Positions 1 through 8,840 of a DNA stretch of 8,840 nucleotides are shown in pieces (the first letter of the stretch is position 1; the number at the start of each line of letters is the position of its first letter). The notes under the pieces were generated by a model. That model was not told the origin of the DNA and made no database searches. It saw only the letters and a program-made list of their open reading frames with translations. A program made the translations under genes and the position numbers. Source of the DNA: a virus (lineage: Duplodnaviria > Heunggongvirae > Uroviricota > Caudoviricetes); IMG/VR virus record IMGVR_UViG_2917881069_000002, positions 1 to 8,840 of that record. The stretch is one strand, 5' to 3'.

Positions 1-1038
1 TTAACGCTTATCCGCTACCAGTTTGAGCGCATGTTCCAGCACGTTAATGTCAGCGCCCGCTTTATGGGCATTTTCACTTAAATACCGCCGCCACTGCCGC
101 GCACCAGGAATCCCCTGGAACAGCCCCAGCATATGCCGGGTGATATGACCGAGATACGTCCCCTGGCTGAGTTCACGCTCAATGTACGGATACATAGCTC
201 GTACCACCGCCACCGGATCGGCATCGGTATCCGAGGAACCAAATATCTCTCGATCCACTGCCGCCAGAATGCCTGGGTTTTGATACGCTTCACGCCCGAC
301 CATCACGCCATCCATATGTTGCAGGTGTGCTTTAGCCTCTTCCAGCGACTTGATACCACCGTTAATTGACATAGCCAGATGCGGGAAATCACGCTTCAGT
401 TGATAGACGCGCGGGTAATCGAGCGGCGGGATCTCACGGTTTTCTTTTGGGCTTAAACCGGAGAGCCAGGCTTTACGCGCGTGGATGATAAACATCTCGC
501 ATTCGCCTTTGCCGGAAACGGTGTCGATAAAATCACAGAGAAATTCATAGCTGTCCTGGTCGTCAATGCCAATACGCGTTTTCACCGTCACTGGAATCGA
601 CACTACATCGCGCATCGCTTTTACGCAGTCAGCCACCAGTTGCGCATTCCCCATCAGGCACGCGCCAAACATGCCGTTCTGTACCCGGTCTGACGGGCAG
701 CCGACATTCAGGTTGATCTCATCATATCCGCGCGCTTCTGCCAGCTTCGCGCACTGCGCCAGCGCCGCCGGATCGCTACCGCCCAACTGTAACGCCACCG
801 GATGCTCTTCTTCACTGTATGCCAGGTAATCACCTTTACCGTGAATAATCGCCCCTGTGGTCACCATTTCGGTATAGAGCAACGTATTACGGGAGAGCAG
901 ACGCAGGAAATAACGGCAGTGTCTGTCCGTCCAGTCGAGCATAGGAGCAATGCTAAACCGAGAATTCCAGTAAACACCAGTTTTTTCAGGCATCACGCTG
1001 GTTTGATTAATTTTTTGTGTTTCATGATTATCGTGCAT
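1..1038 (-). CDS. dusA: tRNA-dihydrouridine synthase A (DusA), complete, 345 codons
   Basis: Minus-strand ORF with TAA stop at 1-3 and ATG at 1036-1038. Translation ([44 protein letters not shown] ... [21 protein letters not shown] ... ending ALKLVADKR) is recognisably enterobacterial DusA. No strong SD before the ATG at 1038; an in-frame ATG 45 nt downstream (MPEKTG...) is an alternative start. Confidence 0.95.
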
Positions 1039-1070
1039 TTTTGAACATTTCAGGCTATTTTTCTCGCGTT

Positions 1071-1106
1071 AGGTTCCCGCACAGGTTCCCACGTTTTATG
1101 GGAACC
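1071..1106. promoter_or_regulatory. Repeat cluster in the dusA-int divergent intergenic region: direct repeat AGGTTCCC (1071-1078, 1083-1090) and inverted repeat GGTTCCC-N9-GGGAACC (1084-1106)
   Basis: Read directly from the sequence aggttcccgcacaggttcccacgttttatgggaacc, 21 bp upstream of the int ATG. No T-tract on either side, so not an intrinsic terminator. Function (operator, integrase or accessory-factor site) is inference. Confidence 0.3.
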
Positions 1107-1126
1107 CGAAATAACGAGGTCGTGTA

Positions 1127-2224
1127 ATGGCGTACTATAACATAGAGAAACGACTAAAATCCGATGGCACACCACGCTATCGCTGTAATGTGATTATCAA
1201 AGAAAAAGGGGTTATCACTTACAGGGAAAGCAAAACATTCCCTAAACATGCTCATGCCAAAACATGGGGCACACAGAAAGTGATGGAATTAGATCTACAT
1301 GGCATTCCATCATCAAATGCTGTTGACGGGCTTACAGTCCGTGACTTACTACGCAAATATTTAAATGACCCAAATGCCGGAGGTAAAGCAGGCCGTACTA
1401 AAAGATATGTGCTGGAACTACTTATGGATAGTGACATTTCTGCGATCAGACTATCTGAATTAACAGAAAATGACGTAATAGAACATTGCAGGTTGAGAAA
1501 CAACGCCGGTGCAGGTCCAGCTACTGTTAGCCACGATGTTAGTTATCTTGGCAGTGTTCTGGATGCAGCCAAACCTGTATACGGAATTAATTACACATCA
1601 AACCCAGCAAAAGCCGCTCGTCCATATCTACTTAAACTTGGTTTAATTGGTAAATCAAATCGTCGTAATCGTAGACCAGCATCTGATGAACTAGACATGC
1701 TCATTGAAGGCCTTCAACAACGATCTACTCATAAATGCTCAAAAATTCCGTTCGTTGATATCCTCAAATTTTCTGTGTGGTCCTGTATGCGAATCGGAGA
1801 AGTATGCCGGTTACGATGGGAAGATCTCGACCAGGAACAAAAATCTATACTAGTAAGAGACAGGAAAGATCCACGTAAAAAGGAAGGTAACCATATGAAA
1901 GTGGCCTTGCTTGGGGAAGCCTGGGATATCGTCCAACGACAACCCAAAAAATCTGAATTCATTTTTCCATACAACAGCACTTCTGTTACCGCAGGATTTC
2001 AGAGGGTAAGAAGCAAATTAGGTATTAAAGATCTGCGATACCATGATTTGCGTAGAGAAGGGGCAAGTCGCTTATTTGAGGCTGGTTTTAGTATTGAGGA
2101 AGTCGCCCAGGTTACAGGGCATCGTTCATTAAACGTGCTATGGCAGGTATATACCGAACTGTATCCAAAATCTTTACATAATCGTTTTGAAGAACTCCAA
2201 AGGAGCAGAAATAAGACCTCTTGA
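1127..2224 (+). CDS. int: Phage tyrosine integrase (site-specific recombinase), dusA-associated type, 365 codons
   Basis: ATG at 1127 preceded by GAGG (1116-1119, 7-nt spacer). C-terminal catalytic region carries tyrosine-recombinase signature residues: Arg in CMRIGEVCRLRWEDL, H-x-x-R in YHDLRREGASRL, His in TGHRS and Tyr in LWQVYTELY. Divergent and 88 bp from dusA; lower GC than dusA. Confidence 0.92.
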   Translation: MAYYNIEKRLKSDGTPRYRCNVIIKEKGVITYRESKTFPKHAHAKTWGTQKVMELDLHGIPSSNAVDGLTVRDLLRKYLNDPNAGGKAGRTKRYVLELLMDSDISAIRLSELTENDVIEHCRLRNNAGAGPATVSHDVSYLGSVLDAAKPVYGINYTSNPAKAARPYLLKLGLIGKSNRRNRRPASDELDMLIEGLQQRSTHKCSKIPFVDILKFSVWSCMRIGEVCRLRWEDLDQEQKSILVRDRKDPRKKEGNHMKVALLGEAWDIVQRQPKKSEFIFPYNSTSVTAGFQRVRSKLGIKDLRYHDLRREGASRLFEAGFSIEEVAQVTGHRSLNVLWQVYTELYPKSLHNRFEELQRSRNKTS

Positions 2225-2272
2225 CACTGTTTATTCATACAGTTAAAAATAATACTGTATACAAACACAGTA
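2221..2272 (+). promoter_or_regulatory. SOS-regulated promoter: -35 TTGACA (2221-2226), -10 TAAAAT (2245-2250), two LexA boxes (CTGT-N8-ACAG) at 2225-2244 and 2253-2272
   Basis: Box 1 cACTGTttattcatACAGtt; box 2 taCTGTatacaaacACAGta, which differs from the consensus TACTGTATATATATACAGTA at only three central positions. The -35 overlaps the int stop codon (TGA 2222-2224). The GAGGGA RBS at 2275-2280 and dinI ATG at 2286 follow. Confidence 0.8.
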
Positions 2273-2285
2273 TAGAGGGATTTTT

Positions 2286-2534
2286 ATGCGTATTGAGATC
2301 TGCATAGCCAAAGAGAAAATGACTAAAATGCCAAACGGTGCTGTGGATGCGTTAAAGGAAGAATTAACTCGACGCATCAGTAAGCGTTATGACGATGTAG
2401 AGGTGATCGTAAAAGCCACCAGCAACGATGGCCTTTCTGTTACGCGCACCGCCGATAAAGATTCAGCTAAAACTTTTGTTCAGGAAACTCTGAAAGATAC
2501 CTGGGAGTCTGCTGACGAGTGGTTTGTTCATTAA
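2286..2534 (+). CDS. dinI: DinI-family (DNA-damage-inducible protein I-like) protein, 82 aa, prophage-encoded
   Basis: Translation [31 protein letters not shown] ... [10 protein letters not shown] ... [17 protein letters not shown] follows the E. coli DinI pattern as I recall it (MRIE..IAK...GA.DAL..EL.RRI...LSV...QETWESADDWFV; recalled, not verified). Good RBS and tandem LexA boxes immediately upstream. Confidence 0.88.
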
Positions 2535-2600
2535 TTAATACGTAAAATCGATAACGGCTGGAAATCATTCAATACTCGCACTATCGGAAGTTCACCAGCC

Positions 2601-2641
2601 AGCCGCAGTATTCTGCCATGACAAGTTGCTGCGGCTTTTTA
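2601..2641 (+). terminator. Putative rho-independent terminator downstream of dinI, between convergent genes
   Basis: Stem 2601-2610 (agccgcagta) pairs with 2627-2636 (tgctgcggct), 16-nt loop, followed by TTTTT (2636-2640). The long loop makes it weaker than a canonical terminator. No U-tract on the minus-strand side. Confidence 0.4.
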
Positions 2642-2644
2642 TGT

Positions 2645-2932
2645 TTAACGGATAAACAGCCAGACCAGCAGACACGCCACCACCGGCACAGCAAAATCCA
2701 TCAGACTTGCCATATCCCACACGCGCGGATCAAAACCACCCCACCACGGCATATTCATACGCTTGCCATGCCCGAACATTTCAATCCAGCGATATTCTGC
2801 CTGGGTATGTTCACGCGCAATGAAGAACGTACAACCGGCTATCGCTCCGTAAGCCCAGTTCCCGGTAAAAAGACCAACCAGTACCTGCGCAGCCACAGCA
2901 CAAAGTGCATGAAGGAAAGGTGTTATATCCAT
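2645..2932 (-). CDS. Small integral membrane protein (95 aa, 2-3 predicted TM helices), function unknown; candidate moron / superinfection-exclusion-type protein
   Basis: ATG at 2930-2932 preceded by AGGAGGAG (complement of 2934-2941), 10 bp after the stop of the upstream 227-aa gene. Hydrophobic segments FLHALCAVAAQVLVGLFTG, AYGAIAGCTFFIA and LMDFAVPVVACLLVWLFI. The opposing plus-strand 158-aa ORF (2618-3094) is His/Arg/Cys-rich junk with no RBS. Confidence 0.65.
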   Translation of the reverse strand: MDITPFLHALCAVAAQVLVGLFTGNWAYGAIAGCTFFIAREHTQAEYRWIEMFGHGKRMNMPWWGGFDPRVWDMASLMDFAVPVVACLLVWLFIR

Positions 2933-2942
2933 TACTCCTCCT

Positions 2943-3626
2943 TTATCCGATATCGCTTCGGGAAGTTGATAACAGCTTTAATTCTGACTCAAGTTCATCA
3001 ACTCTTTCTGTCAGTTTCTGGATATGGTGAATCAGTGGAACAACCAGACGTTCGTACATCACACCTTCGGCAACAAGGCCATTGCTGGAAATAGCTTCCG
3101 GTGCATCATCTTCGTTAGCTGGTCGCCAGTGTACAAACTGAGGGGCAATTTCTCCTACTTCCTCGGCAATCAATCCGTAGAATCCCCAGTCACGCCTGTC
3201 ATTTTCGCATTGCGACCTGTACCACACAGGGCGCATCTTGAAAATGAGATCGGCGTGCTCTGAATCTATCGTCTCTACTGAATGTTTATAGCGGATAGAC
3301 GATGTTGACCGCAGCACAGACGAAATTGCGGGGTCAGGATTAAGATAAAGGTTTGCCGCCGCTGTAGTCGTGCCCAATCCCCACAAATAAAACGCTTCAC
3401 GACCAGTCAGCGGGTAAAAATCTCCACCATAACGACCACTTTCCAGATCGTTCACTTCCACTTTGTTTTTCAGCTTATTATCAACTTCAGTTTTTGTGTA
3501 TCTGGAGCTGATATCCTGCTTTGCACTGGTCATCTCAGTCTGAAGCGTTGATACTTTTCCGTTAATTGAGGAAATATCTCCCTTTAGCTTGGTGATATCT
3601 CCTGGAATTACTGTCGATATAGCCAT
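2943..3626 (-). CDS. Tail-fibre-like protein: N-terminal coiled-coil plus C-terminal intramolecular chaperone (Peptidase S74 / endosialidase-chaperone type) domain, 227 aa
   Basis: ATG at 3624-3626 preceded by GGGAGA (TGA-GGGAGATAA-ATG). C-terminal half carries S74-type motifs: S109-S-I-R-Y-K114 (S-x-x-R-x-K, candidate autocleavage Ser/Lys dyad), MRPVWY, GLIAEEVGEIAPQFV, and a terminal helix PLIHHIQKLTERVDELESELKLL. N-terminal ITKLKGDISSINGKVSTLQTEMTSAKQDISSRYTKTEVDNKLKNKVEVNDL is heptad-like. Confidence 0.8.
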   Translation of the reverse strand: MAISTVIPGDITKLKGDISSINGKVSTLQTEMTSAKQDISSRYTKTEVDNKLKNKVEVNDLESGRYGGDFYPLTGREAFYLWGLGTTTAAANLYLNPDPAISSVLRSTSSIRYKHSVETIDSEHADLIFKMRPVWYRSQCENDRRDWGFYGLIAEEVGEIAPQFVHWRPANEDDAPEAISSNGLVAEGVMYERLVVPLIHHIQKLTERVDELESELKLLSTSRSDIG

Positions 3627-3635
3627 TTATCTCCC

Positions 3636-3917
3636 TCACATCCAGCCACGAAGTTGATGTTCAACTACAACCGCGTATTCATCGAATAATGACGATATTT
3701 GCGTATCATTAATGATGCGCACGTTTACAAAATATCCGTCTTCCTTAACACATACCGGATCGCCATCTTCAGTAAGTTCTCCGGTTTCTTTGTACACGTT
3801 ACCTATCACGTCAATGAGAATATCATCCTGCATCGACTCGTCATCATAATAGCCGATACTCTCCATAAAGGCCGAAAAGTCGGCTCTGTCGGCAAATTTG
3901 AGTGTTAAATCTTTCAT
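3636..3917 (-). CDS. Highly acidic 93-aa protein of unknown function, translationally coupled to the side tail fibre gene
   Basis: ATG at 3915-3917 overlaps the fibre stop (ATGA) and is preceded by GGGGAGAG inside the fibre 3' end. About 28% Asp+Glu with very few basic residues; no signal peptide or TM segment. Does not resemble lambda Tfa-type assembly proteins by eye. Confidence 0.65.
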   Translation of the reverse strand: MKDLTLKFADRADFSAFMESIGYYDDESMQDDILIDVIGNVYKETGELTEDGDPVCVKEDGYFVNVRIINDTQISSLFDEYAVVVEHQLRGWM

Positions 3918-6289
3918 TTAATACTCTCCCCGATTTGCGCATCAGTTAATTCTTTATGCCATATTCTGAAATTTCTAATATGACCGAATAAGTGACGTTC
4001 ACCCGTTGAAGTTTGCCCACCAAAACGAATGCTTGTATTCTTAGTTACATATCTCCACGCGGTTTTTTTAGGAACACTAGGAGGAATATCACCATTCAAA
4101 ACAATATGAACACCATAATCTTTAGTAATTCTAAATCCAGCAACGAACTTTCTCTCTTTCGTTACCAGGTAACTATTAACGCGTCCAGCATCTGCACCAA
4201 CATCAATATAAGGGCTACCAGTATTTGCGGCAGTACCGCCACGGCAACCAAAAATAACGGCCTGGCCAGTTGGCACACCGGAAAAATCCATTATACGTGG
4301 TGCTGCATTAGGAGGAAGTTCCCATTCCCAATTTCGATGAACTTCGGCTAAAACTGTAATAGGTGCGTCATACATATTATTCTTAACAGGAATGTTAACC
4401 AAATCACTAGCGCGGGTAGCTGGTACGTCGTTAGTTATGATTAATGATGTTGCATGAGAACATTTCTCTACCTGAGCGGTTGCCGCCTTTATGTAATTTC
4501 CTGCGACCAATTCGCCGCCACTTTTAGCAAGCATTTCAGTACGAGCATAAACGCTCATATCTTCGGTGGCTTTAAATGTCGATTGGAAAAAATACCATCC
4601 ACTAGCAGGATCATAATCAACGCGACTAGACAAAACATCACTAACTAGTTTAGCGGTATCAAGATCCAACATAGCATCAGCAATAAATGTGTTTCCGTTC
4701 CCGTCATCATTTAATTTTGAAATACGATGGCGAGCGCGACAACCAGCCCCCTTAACACGAATAGATATAGTAACATATTCACCACCAACAACTGGAATCA
4801 CACGGGATGTCCCAGTAGAAATCAACGTAACTGGCCCAGTGTCGGATGATTCTTTATAAGTGAATGTTGCTTGAGTAAAACCAAATTCATCAATAGAGTT
4901 TTCACTAACAGATAAACGGTTTGTATTTCTGTTCCAGTTCGCTGGTGAGTTACTATTAATAAAGTTATTAGTCGTAGTACCTTCAATCAACAAACCATTT
5001 TTTTCGAAGCGTGGTTCGTCAATTGCAGCCTCCGTCAGTACACCAGATTTGTTAATGTAGGTTGCTTTCGATGCGCGTTTAAACTTTACAACCTTATCGC
5101 CAGGCATTGTTATTTCATCATCACCAATAACAATCTTTTTATATGATGGCGAAAAGCCCGTAATCATATCCAGTGAATCGTTAAACGGTATCCACACATC
5201 GGGAAGCGGCTGCAAAACTTGTTTATACGGCTCCGCAGCCTGGCTTGCATACTCTCTGGCTGCGTCTTCACTTGCTTTTGCAGCCGTCTGGCTTGCAGCG
5301 GATGCTTTCGCCGAGTTAGCCGCCGCAGTCTCGCTCGCCTTTGCGTTGGTTTCACTGGTTTTTGCAGCTTTTTGACTGTTGGCTGATGCAGTGGCAGAAG
5401 AAGCCGCCGCACTTGCAGAACCAGCTGCGGCACTCTCGCTTTGGGCTGCTGCATCCTGACTGTTTTTCGCCGCAGTTTCGCTGGCTTTGGCATTCGTTTC
5501 GCTGGTCTTCGCTGCCGTCTGGCTGGACTTTGCGTTAGTTTCACTCGTCTTCGCAGCTTTCTGGCTGTTAGCCGCAGCAGTTGCTGATCCAGCTGCTGAA
5601 GTCGCAGAACCGGCTGCAGCACTCTCGCTTTCGGCTGCTGCAGCCTGACTGCTTTTCGCCGCAGTTTCACTGGTTTTGGCATTCGTTTCGCTTGTTTTCG
5701 CTGCCGTCTGGCTGGACTTTGCGTTAGTTTCGCTCGTCTTTGCGGCTGTCTCGCTGTTTTTCGCATTGGTTTCTGATTTTTTGGCTGCTGTCGCGGAGTT
5801 TGCCGATGCAGTCTGTGAGGCCGCTGCCGCCTGTGCGCTGTTAGCTGCATTCGTTTCTGAGGTTTTCGCCGCGTTCTTCGATGATGCCGCTGCAGTTTCG
5901 GATTTCTTTGCCGCCGCTGCGCTCTGAGAGGCGGCTTCGGCGTTGCGTGCCGCTTCTTCCACCATTTCCTCAAAACGACGCAATGCCTCCGGCATGACGT
6001 CCTCTTCCGTCATGGCACCGAGAAAATCATTCAGCGTACCTGGTCTGGAACCTTCATAGACGGTAATGGTCCCGGCATGTGAAGGCGGAAAACCTTCAAC
6101 CAGCAGGGTGACGCTGTACTGGCCATACTCAACATCCATACTGTAACGCCCGGCTTCATCCGGATTTTCAGATGCCACCGTGTTCACCAGTACCGTGGTG
6201 CTGTTACGCTTTGCCTTCAGTTGAATAGTGCAGTTCTGTATTGGTTTTCCCGCACCATCTTTCAGCACACCTGAAATCTGTACTGCCAT
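3914..6289 (-). CDS. stf: Side tail fibre protein (lambda Stf-like N-terminal domain, Ala/Ser/Thr-rich repeat shaft, distinct C-terminal jelly-roll/LamG-like putative receptor-binding domain)
   Basis: Start taken as ATG 6287-6289 (GGAG 5 nt upstream); the track start at 6295 is a GTG inside the SD. N-terminus MAVQISGVLKDGAGKPIQNCTIQLKAKRNSTTV ... EAGRYSMDVEYGQYSV ... GFPPSHAGTITVYE matches the lambda Stf N-terminal domain as I recall it. C-terminal ~400 aa are AT-rich DNA, starting EPRFEKNGLLIEGTTTNNF and ending RFGGQTSTGERHLFGHIRNFRIWHKELTDAQIGESIK. Confidence 0.9.
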   Translation of the reverse strand: MAVQISGVLKDGAGKPIQNCTIQLKAKRNSTTVLVNTVASENPDEAGRYSMDVEYGQYSVTLLVEGFPPSHAGTITVYEGSRPGTLNDFLGAMTEEDVMPEALRRFEEMVEEAARNAEAASQSAAAAKKSETAAASSKNAAKTSETNAANSAQAAAASQTASANSATAAKKSETNAKNSETAAKTSETNAKSSQTAAKTSETNAKTSETAAKSSQAAAAESESAAAGSATSAAGSATAAANSQKAAKTSETNAKSSQTAAKTSETNAKASETAAKNSQDAAAQSESAAAGSASAAASSATASANSQKAAKTSETNAKASETAAANSAKASAASQTAAKASEDAAREYASQAAEPYKQVLQPLPDVWIPFNDSLDMITGFSPSYKKIVIGDDEITMPGDKVVKFKRASKATYINKSGVLTEAAIDEPRFEKNGLLIEGTTTNNFINSNSPANWNRNTNRLSVSENSIDEFGFTQATFTYKESSDTGPVTLISTGTSRVIPVVGGEYVTISIRVKGAGCRARHRISKLNDDGNGNTFIADAMLDLDTAKLVSDVLSSRVDYDPASGWYFFQSTFKATEDMSVYARTEMLAKSGGELVAGNYIKAATAQVEKCSHATSLIITNDVPATRASDLVNIPVKNNMYDAPITVLAEVHRNWEWELPPNAAPRIMDFSGVPTGQAVIFGCRGGTAANTGSPYIDVGADAGRVNSYLVTKERKFVAGFRITKDYGVHIVLNGDIPPSVPKKTAWRYVTKNTSIRFGGQTSTGERHLFGHIRNFRIWHKELTDAQIGESIK
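5341..5760 (-). repeat. In-frame tandem duplication, period 189 bp (63 aa), about 2.2 copies, containing 42-bp (14-aa AAKTSETNAKSSQT-like) sub-repeats, within the stf shaft
   Basis: Copy at about 5425-5556 is near-identical to 5614-5745 (offset 189 bp); unit starts at about 5341, 5530 and 5719 (partial). Encodes the repeated block AAKTSETNAK(S/A)S(Q/E)TAAK..SESAAAGSA...ANSQK. Confidence 0.75.
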
Positions 6290-6300
6290 ACTCACTCCAC

Positions 6301-6328
6301 AAATAAAAAAGGCGCCATTTCCGGCGCC
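6301..6328 (-). terminator. Rho-independent terminator between J and stf
   Basis: Minus strand reads GGCGCC-GGAAAT-GGCGCC (6-bp all-GC stem, 6-nt loop; 6328-6311) followed by TTTTTTATTT (6310-6301). It sits 22 nt after the J stop, and its T-tract abuts the stf SD. Confidence 0.6.
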
Positions 6329-6349
6329 CGTATTGGGGTTATAAATATT

Positions 6350-8107
6350 TCAACGGATACTGATACCGGAAGCAGCTTTTTTGGTCACAATCACTGTACA
6401 GTCTGTGATGTTACCTGCGCCCTGATTGCCTTTCTGGAAAATCTTAAACTCCAGAGTGACGCTACCACCACCACTCGGCATATCAATAACCGCACTGTAA
6501 CTACCGGGAATGGCTCCTTTAGTTTCTCTGGTTGCGATTAATACGCCGTTTTTGCGAACTTCAAAACCATAACCCGTGTATCGCGTACCTCCCGGGTTAT
6601 TACCGCTCCCCGGATCGTCATACGCCACACCATTAAAAATAATGGGCGGAATAATAATCTGACGGTCAAAGTTATGATCATCGTAAATGGTGACTGTAAC
6701 CGTCCCGCCTGGTGTTTCCGTATCGCCCCACGAGCCAGTTTTTTTCGGGAATGGCTTAGATACAGCTTTGACGAAGTCACCTCTGACCTGAGTTGCCTCC
6801 AGCATTCCCTTAATCGTACAGTTCTCATTTATCGTGACGTTGTTGAGCGTCCCGGAGTTCGCGTTCACGTTACCGCTGATATCCGCATTTTTCGCCGTCA
6901 GCCGCCCGTCCGGTGTCAGGGAAAATGCCGGAGGATTACCGCCGCTGGTAATGGTGGGAGCCGTCAGATACTTCAGGAACACTTCGTTCATGAATATCTG
7001 GTTGCCCTGCGCCACAAACATCGGCGTTTCATTCCCGTTTGCCGGGTCAATAAACGCGATACGGTTAGCGGCAACCAGGAACTGGCTCAGTTTGCCTTCC
7101 TCCGTATCCTCCATACTAAGGCCAAGCCCCGCGACATAATGCCTGCCGTCTTCGGTCTGCTCAATTTTGACGCCCCACATGGCATTCCATTTATCGTTGG
7201 CGTCCTTCCACTCTTTCGAAAACTCCTCCAGTTTGCTGGCGTTATCCTCCGTCAGCTCGACTTTTTCCAGCAGCTCCTTGCCGAGATGGGATTCGGTTAT
7301 CTGGCCTTTGAAAAAATCCAGGTAACCTTCCGCATCATCGCTCGCCCGACCGACAGCCTCCACGAATGTCGATTTGCCGACGGTGTTCACACTGCGAACG
7401 TAAAAATAATAATCATGGCCCGGTTTGATATTGATACTGGCGGCTATCCAGTACAGCGCCGTGCCAAGATAGCGGGCTGTGGTTTCAACCTGCCTGATAT
7501 CCGCAATCCGCTTTTCCGAGAACCAGAACTCAAACTGTACAGTCGGATCATAAACCGCAAGATGCGGCGTGGCGGTTATCTGAAAATAGCCCGGCGTCAG
7601 CTCAATCCGCGATGGCGCTGCCGGTGCGGCAATCCGGAACGATACCGACGCCGGATCGCCCTGCTGCCCCCACGCATTTACCGCCCGGACTGTCAGACTG
7701 TAATTTCCCAGAGCCAGCTGCCTGAAGCGGTATGTGGTTTCCGTCGTCCGGGCCGTGCTGACCAGCCGCTCACTGCCGTCATCCGCTGCCACGGTCAGGC
7801 GAAGCATAAAGCTCACGCCCTTCACCACCTTCGGCGTATCCCAGCGCGCCAGCACCTGGTATTCCCCGCTGTCTGCGGTGACTTCTGCGGTCAGGTGTTG
7901 CACTGCTGGCGGAGTGACACCATTCACCGTGCCGCTCTGGTCGCCGTCAAAGTGCGCCCCGTTATCCACGATGGCTTCTTTCTCCGGCACATGCTGCACG
8001 GCGGTGATGGCATACGTACCGTCATCGTTCTCACGGATACTCACGCAGCGGAACAGGCGCTGGCGCAGCGTCGGCAGCTTCAGCCCCCACCACGCTGTAT
8101 TCTGCAA
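6350..8107 (-). CDS. J: Host-specificity protein J (central tail fibre / tail tip), C-terminal 585-codon segment; its upstream end is a frameshift point, not a true start
   Basis: Long minus-strand ORF ending ...[13 protein letters not shown] with TGA at 6350-6352. Translation from [41 protein letters not shown] onward reads as a lambda gpJ-family protein. The track M at 8107 is a TTG; the real continuation is in the overlapping upstream frame. Confidence 0.85.
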
Positions 8108-8840
8108 CGCCGTCAGGAACCCGTCTCACTTTCACCTTCACGCCGTCGGTGACGGACTGGACCTCCACGCTGACCGGATTCCCCTGTCCGTCAACCAGGC
8201 TTATCAGCGTGGTGCCGGAGGATGGCAGCGTGATTTCACGGTCGAGCGTCAGTGTCCGCGTCTGGCTGTTCACCGCCAGCACGCGCCCGCCGATGCTGAT
8301 ACCCGCATAGTCATCATCACAGATTTCAATGACATCGCCCGGTACATGGCGAAGCCCTTCTGCACCCACGCTGAAGTCCACGGTCTGCGTTTCCAGCAGC
8401 TCCGTTTTAATCAGCCACAGCCCGGCGCGGTGTGCCTGCCCCCGGCTGGTACAGCCAAAGGCATCCATCTTCGTGACGTTACGACCGTAACGGAGAATGG
8501 CCTGCGTATCTTCAACAAGCTCTGTCGCCGTCTCCCAGCCGTTATTCGGGTCAATCCAGTTCACCTCAACGGCATTATGGCGGTCCTTCAGGGCGCTGAA
8601 GCTGTAGCGGAACGGCGCGCCATCATCCGGCATCACCACATTACTGCGGTTATAGGTCCACACCTTATCCGACGGTCGGTCCTGCACGAACGTCAGCGTC
8701 TGCCCGTTCCATACCGGCATACAGCGCATCGCCGAGCAGAAATCACTGAGAACATCCCACGCCTTACGCTGTGTGGTCAGGTAGGCATTACGAGGTGATG
8801 CGCGGCTCCGTGCCACCAAAGCCATCCGGCACCGACTGGT
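8031..8840 (-). CDS. J: Host-specificity protein J, N-proximal segment (5' end beyond the window), terminated by an apparent frameshift
   Basis: Frame is open to the window edge (codons TSRCR precede the track's ATG at 8823-8825). Translation ...[72 protein letters not shown]...[17 protein letters not shown] is J-like. It then degenerates to [19 protein letters not shown] and stops at 8031-8033 while the J-like reading continues in the other frame. Confidence 0.85.

Follow-up and report, generated by a model that had tools for sequence, protein, structure and literature searches.

Where the host gene ends and the phage begins: a putative attL junction of a lambda-like prophage within dusA

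How can a prophage lie within the coding sequence of a host gene and yet leave a full-length reading frame behind, and at which nucleotide does host DNA then give way to phage DNA? This question is raised by the dusA locus at the beginning of a stretch of 8,840 nucleotides (positions 1 to 8,840 of IMG/VR virus record IMGVR_UViG_2917881069_000002; hereafter the window), which, read as the reverse complement, makes up the final 8840 bases of contig PDIG01000015.1 (GCA_004745185.1). The tRNA-modification gene dusA occupies positions 1-1038 on the minus strand, with its start codon at 1036-1038, and encodes 345 residues (Pfam Dus, E = 1.7e-104). Divergent from it is a gene for a tyrosine integrase of 365 residues, int (1127-2224, plus strand; Pfam Phage_integrase PF00589, E = 9.6e-21, residues 189-346), and an 88-bp spacer (1039-1126) separates the two start codons. 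A first-pass annotation of the window had noted this spacing and orientation and had quoted the N-terminal peptide of DusA together with the conserved block that follows it; the coordinates of the open reading frames (ORFs) and the translation, respectively, bear out both. It further proposed that the attachment (att) junction lies at about 930-1040, that the element supplies about 25 codons ahead of the conserved block as well as a promoter, and that the integrase belongs to a family that inserts into the 5' end of dusA. Such dusA-associated integrases were defined by Farrugia et al. (2015; PMC4482086), who described the replacement of the dusA 5' end by the element with retention of the beta-1 strand, and semi-conserved 21-bp repeats that flank the insertion. 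The integrase of phage mEp460 was among their bacteriophage matches, and the genus Escherichia was over-represented.

The answer offered here is that positions 930-1126 almost certainly represent the left attachment site (attL) of a lambda-like prophage of the mEp460 / 1720a-02 group inside dusA, with the crossover in a short core at 935-942. The window was compared with E. coli lysogens, prophage-free E. coli K-12, the far junction of the complete lysogen DFL.5 and four free-phage genomes. Against four E. coli lysogens, 78-80 mismatches are found in positions 1-919 and only 0-1 in the 358 bp of positions 943-1300, a contrast (Fisher p = 1e-10 to 2e-12) that places the junction signal far beyond chance. 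Substitutions of the host lineage end at position 919, and positions 920-942 (TGTCTGTCCGTCCAGTCGAGCAT) are invariant in all lysogens and in prophage-free K-12. From 943 onward, one sequence is shared by all lysogens and is not present in K-12. A comparison of the 5' end with prophage-free strains of the same species had been named by the first-pass annotation as a test of its proposal. The prophage-free K-12 sequence, from a different lineage, is not identical, with 18 mismatches among the 96 positions of 943-1038 and homology that ends at 1041. The host-derived part of dusA can be assigned to positions 1-934 (minus strand), from within codon 35 to the stop codon.

Positions 920-942 form the attL copy of a semi-conserved att repeat, encode DusA residues M33-H40 and are the counterpart of the semi-conserved repeat of 21 bp described by Farrugia et al. 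(2015; PMC4482086). The copy present in the right attachment site (attR) and the phage attachment site (attP), AACGGTACATCCTATCGAGCAT, is an imperfect match to it, and positions 920-934 agree with the bacterial attachment site (attB), not with attP. The sole stretch common to attB (K-12), attL (window and DFL.5), attR (DFL.5) and attP (mEp460 and SKA5) is the 8-bp sequence TCGAGCAT at 935-942, the complement of which, ATGCTCGA, supplies codons M33 and L34 along with the first two bases of D35. Because this stretch alone is common to all four sites, strand exchange must fall within it. The core, or overlap region, so delimited falls within the attB sequence TCCAGTCGAGCATGGGAGC, which holds the 7-base core reported for phage 1720a-02. 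The crossover thus lies inside the interval anticipated by the first-pass annotation, at its lower edge. That annotation was mistaken as to the extent of the exchange: the element supplies 32 codons, those for RFSIAP included, and the junction is located inside the MLDWTD block (M33-L34-D35) rather than ahead of it.

Two side observations concern the core itself. A variant, TCAAGCAT, altered at the equivalent of window position 937, occurs in the attP of phage mEp460_4F5 (locus L100) and in the attB of E. coli 25DN (L103), a strain with the short type of dusA 5' end described below, and fits a location of this position within the exchanged overlap region. The ‘circular’ record of phage Lys8385Vzw (L098) contains the core as a tandem duplicate (TCGAGCATTCGAGCAT) to the left of int. 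This duplicate is likely an annotation artefact, in which the prophage ends were joined with both att copies kept, and it independently marks the same 8-bp repeat.

The phage side of the junction can be followed in free phages. In mEp460, mEp460_4F5 and SKA5, the attR-side arm, the core, a dusA-like segment of 96 nucleotides, the 88-bp spacer and int are contiguous, and the sequence of positions 943-1126 accordingly forms one uninterrupted segment of attP in these genomes. The phage-borne surrogate dusA 5' end (943-1038, minus strand) adjoins the core there; it comprises 96 nucleotides that encode DusA residues 1-32 in frame, has the length of the K-12 N-terminus and differs at 0-1 positions from E. 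coli lysogens. The displaced host sequence can be seen in E. coli DFL.5 (NZ_CP104843.1), where an intact lambdoid prophage of ~39 kb, with head, tail, lysis, Q and repressor genes, extends from this junction to a fragment annotated as a truncated tRNA-dihydrouridine synthase, which adjoins a DUF2713 gene and zur. The attR of DFL.5 holds a K-12-type promoter and first 32 codons, and its copy of the att repeat is situated 39 kb from attL; homology to attB is lost directly to the left of TCGAGCAT, with phage DNA beyond (…GGTACATCCTA). A gene of the PrtN family is found across attP or near attR in these relatives (DFL.5, L016 38693-38974; mEp460_025). Junctions of int with dusA of this type are carried by 740 of the 5426 complete E. 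coli genomes. Three things are seen directly in these comparisons: where the crossover lies, that the sequence from 943 onward comes from the phage and, in the related lysogen DFL.5, a native 5' end that has been displaced.

Together, these comparisons suggest a course of events. The attP of the phage would have recombined with host dusA in the 8-bp core by means of the dusA-specific integrase of the phage itself. Sequence to the left of the core is host dusA, and sequence to the right is phage: the 96 nucleotides, the 88-bp spacer with its three GGTTCCC repeats and then int. The host's own promoter and first 32 codons would have been moved ~39 kb to the other end of the prophage, at attR. The incoming phage segment, being in frame and keeping the RFSIAP beta-strand, would restore a full-length frame for a hybrid DusA of 345 residues.

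The integrase has the features expected of such an enzyme. Motif inspection identifies R222 (RIGE), H306 and R309 (HDLR), H332 (GHR) and, ten residues past H332, Y342, which constitute the RHRH tetrad and tyrosine nucleophile of a tyrosine recombinase. The protein is identical to that of E. coli DFL.5 (365/365) and nearly so to those of phages 1720a-02 (361/365) and mEp460 (356/365), the last of which ties it to the recognised dusA-associated integrases. An INT_Rci-type domain is annotated in the mEp460 integrase, which accords with the statement that Rci is the nearest characterised family to the dusA-associated integrases (Farrugia et al. 2015; PMC4482086). No specific model for int was found in NCBIfam, where only weak Xer and integron matches under the cut-off were obtained. 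The identical protein adjoins dusA in thousands of assemblies, mostly of E. coli, and is the commonest allele; int is adjacent to the dusA 5' end in 10 of 10 examined contigs with an identical integrase. In the occupied state, the dusA 5' end is element-derived, as the sequence of 943-1126 is common to lysogens and attP and occurs in neither K-12 nor short-type genomes. Judged by these features, the integrase is a member of the published dusA-associated family, as the first-pass annotation had supposed. Excision as a circle that restores attP and attB may be expected by analogy with the near-identical module of 1720a-02, for which it was experimentally shown: attL and attR were confirmed by polymerase chain reaction and sequencing, and deep sequencing of the excised circles revealed attP (PMC6328086). 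Excision is also implied by the free-phage genomes that carry attP. Downstream of int, a DinI-like gene (2286-2534, plus strand; Pfam PF06183, E = 1.2e-19) keeps its position in all related lysogens and phages and belongs, with int, to a conserved int-dinI module in this group of phages.

The host, as far as dusA can tell, is a non-coli Escherichia lineage, because no complete E. coli genome exceeds 92.6% identity over dusA positions 1-920 (among 5426 genomes) and the K-12 gene differs from the window at 95 of 1041 positions, mainly third codon positions. The host part of dusA is 91.3-91.6% identical to that of E. coli, lysogen or prophage-free alike. In a DusA-based scan, the nearest prophage-free species representative was Escherichia sp. 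E1V33 (94.9% over the gene body); the top match, Escherichia sp. MOD1-EC7003, is also a lysogen, and its gene body reaches only 91.7% identity. Among species-representative genomes, none matched a 52-mer of the dusA body exactly. The divergence of this host from E. coli gave a sharper test of the junction than a prophage-free reference of the same species would have. In the same host, qorA, which flanks pspG-dusA in E. coli, is without a gene call in the source contig (L003 9216-10471, outside the window) and is broken into two ORFs in a second assembly of the host lineage (L004 2926-3908); it is probably a pseudogene.

Several points weigh against the reading of positions 930-1126 as a functional attL junction with a rebuilt dusA. 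The prophage is cut by the contig end, and the far junction of this element is situated beyond the window. The DusA-based scan gave no prophage-free genome from the host's own lineage. When the intact J genes of L005, L008 and L009 are taken as the standard, the tail-tip gene J of the window has one extra base at each of two places, near 8090 and near 8792, and is broken into out-of-frame pieces. Finally, sigma-70-like promoters were found neither by the built-in promoter/terminator scan of 850-1350 nor, over 360 bp ahead of the dusA ATG, by a relaxed scan (8 of 12 matches), and the hybrid gene lacks a Shine-Dalgarno sequence before its ATG. The state of J and the missing expression signals each give weight to an alternative explanation of the locus.

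The first of these alternatives accepts the junction and regards this copy as a decaying, immobile remnant in which the dusA frame is restored, no infectious particles are made and excision perhaps no longer occurs. It draws on the two independent insertions in J, set against three intact relatives, on the source assembly, in which no gene is called at J, and on the occasional truncation of related prophages at this site, such as that by IS100 in E. coli 201609. However, the integrase is full length and of the commonest allele, and the core, surrogate 5' end and spacer repeats are intact; the integration module itself is preserved. The insertions, moreover, occur in a draft assembly near a contig end and may be sequencing errors; they denote either a real pseudogene, and with it a prophage defective in tail assembly, or an error of the draft assembly. 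Decay to an immobile remnant is rather unlikely, and this copy may still be able to excise.

The prophage body (2645-8840, minus strand) consists of ORFs for tail-fibre genes and J, which continue up to the end of the contig. They place a tail module of lambda type (J, side tail fibre and tail-fibre assembly) beside the att-int region, in keeping with a lambdoid phage. The Pfam match to Peptidase_S74 falls directly on a window protein (2943-3626); the phage_tail_N match falls on the corresponding tail-fibre gene of L003, and GpJ domain matches only on the J genes of the related loci L005-L013, to one of which (the J protein of L005) the J of the window is matched by tblastn. J is a mosaic (6350-8089 versus 8085-8789), with residues 326-560 99% identical to the J of L005 and the C-terminal, receptor-binding 600 residues 69% identical. 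The side tail fibre (3914-6295, minus strand) is also 69% identical. It contains a long, repetitive region rich in Ala, Ser, Thr and Lys (SETNAK…TAAKTSE repeats), which yields spurious long ORFs in other frames on both strands (e.g. 5164-5973 and 5676-5927). In E. coli 201609 (L015, NZ_CP048107.1, 4420000-4458000), the related prophage at the same dusA site, truncated by IS100, is followed by a large defence cluster with type II Zorya, a JetD-domain protein, a phosphorothioate-dependent restriction enzyme, a DEAD-box helicase and a methyltransferase; no attR was found in this strain.

Expression of the rebuilt gene presents a separate problem. The spacer at 1039-1126, which is phage-derived and forms the P' arm of attP, is the same sequence in every lysogen and phage, without homology to K-12 past 1041. 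It presumably holds the expression signals for hybrid dusA and int, and transcription of the hybrid gene would then start from the phage arm. The relaxed scan gave a sole, weak candidate promoter for int, TTGATT-17-GATTAT at 1003-1031, inside the surrogate coding segment. Thus, of the surrogate 5' end and promoter that the first-pass annotation ascribed to the element, the 5' end is upheld by the contiguity of 943-1126 in free-phage attP and by the displaced native end in DFL.5, whereas neither of the two sigma-70 scans described above gives support to the promoter. An element-supplied promoter is not supported by the sequence itself, and would follow from analogy with IMEVchUSA3, an element of Vibrio cholerae for which a new promoter was shown and a dusA'-lacZ fusion remained active at a reduced level after integration (Durand et al. 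2021; PMC8409611).

The missing signals could also mean that the surrogate restores the frame only, and that dusA is silenced in lysogens, a loss tolerated as dusA is dispensable. This possibility is improbable. Besides the absence of promoter and Shine-Dalgarno sequences, it can call upon the lower expression seen after integration of IMEVchUSA3, the sole tested case (PMC8409611), although in that case the lacZ fusion was still expressed. Promoter scans say little for dusA, because strong consensus signals are also wanting in the native K-12 and short-type genes, whose upstream regions gave only weak matches of 8-9 of 12 in the relaxed scan. Further, every element-linked 5' end examined keeps an open frame, M1 and RFS(I/V)AP, including those of elements with integrases only 64-83% identical, and this conservation argues for selection on coding function. 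Methionine is missing at position 16 in several element-linked 5' ends, which suggests that M1 is the true start codon of the long form.

A further feature of the spacer is the motif GGTTCCC, present twice on the plus strand (1072-1078 and 1084-1090) and once on the minus strand (1100-1106); the three repeats are probable arm-type or regulatory protein-binding sites. The other attP arm contains two further repeats, with GGTTCCCAATAGGCTCCCAC in the left arm; in L017, the repeats lie within 1440-1457 and 1638-1672. All five GGYTCCC matches in 4.6 kb of mEp460 are situated in the two attP arms; none of 200 shuffles reached five. Spacers of more distant elements were compared as well (L031, L075 and L078). 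Those of Phytobacter and Kosakonia, with integrases 82-83% identical, have the same layout and nearly the same repeat. In the Pluralibacter element (70% identical), the inverted pair and third copy are kept and the repeat itself differs (GGTACACCA / GGTGTAC). That the layout is conserved while the sequence changes along with the integrase argues for element-specific protein-binding sites. The predicted binder would be the integrase, with the repeats serving as arm-type sites, a PrtN-like excision factor or a regulator of int. On the favoured reading of the locus, the repeats of the window would bind the integrase or the PrtN-like factor. Excision of IMEVchUSA3 requires the PrtN-like factor RdfN (PMC8409611).

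A dusA that is wholly native, with an element inserted between the genes near 1041 and N-terminal differences due to allelic divergence, could appeal to the gapless K-12 homology of ~81% that reaches 3 nucleotides upstream of the ATG and stops at 1041, but is hardly conceivable and is refuted by free-phage attP, which contains the same 96 nucleotides, by the mismatch contrast among lysogens, in which 943-1038 is identical to, or 1 nucleotide different from, that of E. coli strains whose dusA bodies differ by 8.5%, and by the attR of DFL.5, which holds a second, K-12-type copy of these codons.

With the boundary of the prophage placed at 935-942, and not at the integrase gene, where annotation pipelines mostly set it, the first 32 codons annotated as host dusA are phage DNA. 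This bears on the delimitation of prophages, on typing schemes that employ dusA and on N-terminal variants of DusA. The same module carries Shiga-toxin phages in E. coli, and its presence in a non-coli Escherichia lineage documents its host range.

The resemblance of the K-12 N-terminus to the phage-borne segment calls for an explanation of its own. The 96 nucleotides upstream of the MLDWTD codons were surveyed in 80 enterobacterial species representatives (survey loci L019-L097), and two unrelated N-terminus types, short and long, were found. The short type (e.g. MSAESQTAYPAYRFSIAP) is that of most genomes, including E. albertii, E. whittamii, Escherichia sp. E1V33, Citrobacter, Klebsiella and Enterobacter, and zur is directly upstream of short-type dusA in the Escherichia-group loci L019, L020, L022 and L023. 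The long type (MHxNxE…QTS…RFS(I/V)AP) adjoins a related integrase in Escherichia sp. MOD1-EC7003, Pluralibacter, Intestinirhabdus, Phytobacter and Kosakonia, and is found with no integrase beside it in K-12, in some genomes of Kosakonia and Silvania and in Citrobacter rodentium. E. coli itself is polymorphic, its 5426 complete genomes being divided between the short type with adjacent zur (1123) and the K-12 type (4303). The two types, compared with 25DN (L103 4240-4460) as the short-type E. coli, diverge at the very nucleotide of the phage crossover, where a serine codon switches from AGC to TCG. The K-12 type (L001 1744-1842) is 81% identical to the phage segment at 943-1041, of the same length and without gaps, and the surrogate N-terminus of IMEVchUSA3 is identical to that of K-12 in length and 61% identical in sequence (PMC8409611). 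Inserts upstream of dusA are also found in Kosakonia, Silvania and Superficieibacter.

We lean slightly towards the view that the ‘native’ K-12 dusA 5' end (residues 1-32), together with the yjbM/DUF2713 insert before zur, may be the fossil of an older element that targeted dusA and from which integrase and far junction have since been deleted. Three negative results count against this: no remnant of an ancestral dusA 5' end was found between yjbM and zur, the K-12-type interval showed neither core-like nor arm-like motifs, and no YjbM homologue turned up in phages. As no dusA fragment, core or arm repeat survives, a fossil origin must assume secondary deletion. Alternatively, the phage may have captured the segment from a K-12-type host. 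A literature search found no paper that states the idea of a fossil in K-12, which is the only potentially new element of this analysis. If it is true, phages today integrate into a site already rebuilt by a predecessor, and the N-terminus of the DusA expressed by about four-fifths of E. coli stems from a mobile element, as does that of the reference protein of biochemical work. Repeated occupation and decay at one att site could, in that case, permanently remodel a host gene.

The known systems with which this locus may be compared range from the remote to the nearly identical. The integrative and conjugative element SXT in prfC offers an analogy only, as the target gene, integrase family and type of element all differ. 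Closer are the elements of Acinetobacter baumannii D1279779 and Pseudomonas protegens Pf-5, in which int is divergent from dusA, insertion is at the 5' end, the replaced 5' end includes the beta-1 strand of the TIM barrel and semi-conserved repeats of ~21 bp flank the element (Farrugia et al. 2015; PMC4482086). These elements differ from that of the window in their cargo and in att sites of 26-28 bp of different sequence, and their integrases are distantly related. IMEVchUSA3 inserts into dusA of E. coli K-12 and likewise provides a new N-terminus, equal in length to the one replaced (Durand et al. 2021; PMC8409611). It is, however, an SGI1-like island mobilised by IncC plasmids and not a phage, and the evidence for its promoter is not directly transferable to the phage arm of the window, which is unrelated in sequence.

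Among phages, mEp460 (JQ182728 / NC_019716) has an attP with the same core, the surrogate dusA 5' segment and the GGTTCCC repeats. Being a free phage, it displays attP instead of attL, and it has a few substitutions in the surrogate coding segment. The nearest relative is the Stx2d-act phage 1720a-02 (KF030445.1), with the same att-int module at 44 mismatches over 1367 bp. The sequence record of this phage starts with the same core, and its surrogate 5' end and spacer are identical to those of the window. Work on 1720a-02 was done in Citrobacter rodentium, and the phage carries stx2, whereas the available 8.8 kb are free of stx genes; the tail-fibre and J genes also differ from those of 1720a-02. 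An in-frame ‘phi-dusA’ ORF, a 7-base core and an insertion ~100 bp into dusA have all been reported for that phage (PMC6328086), and reviews of Shiga-toxin (Stx) phages list dusA and its neighbours yjbM and zur among the insertion sites. The junction described here is thus already known, down to this very module, and is ordinary for this family of phages.

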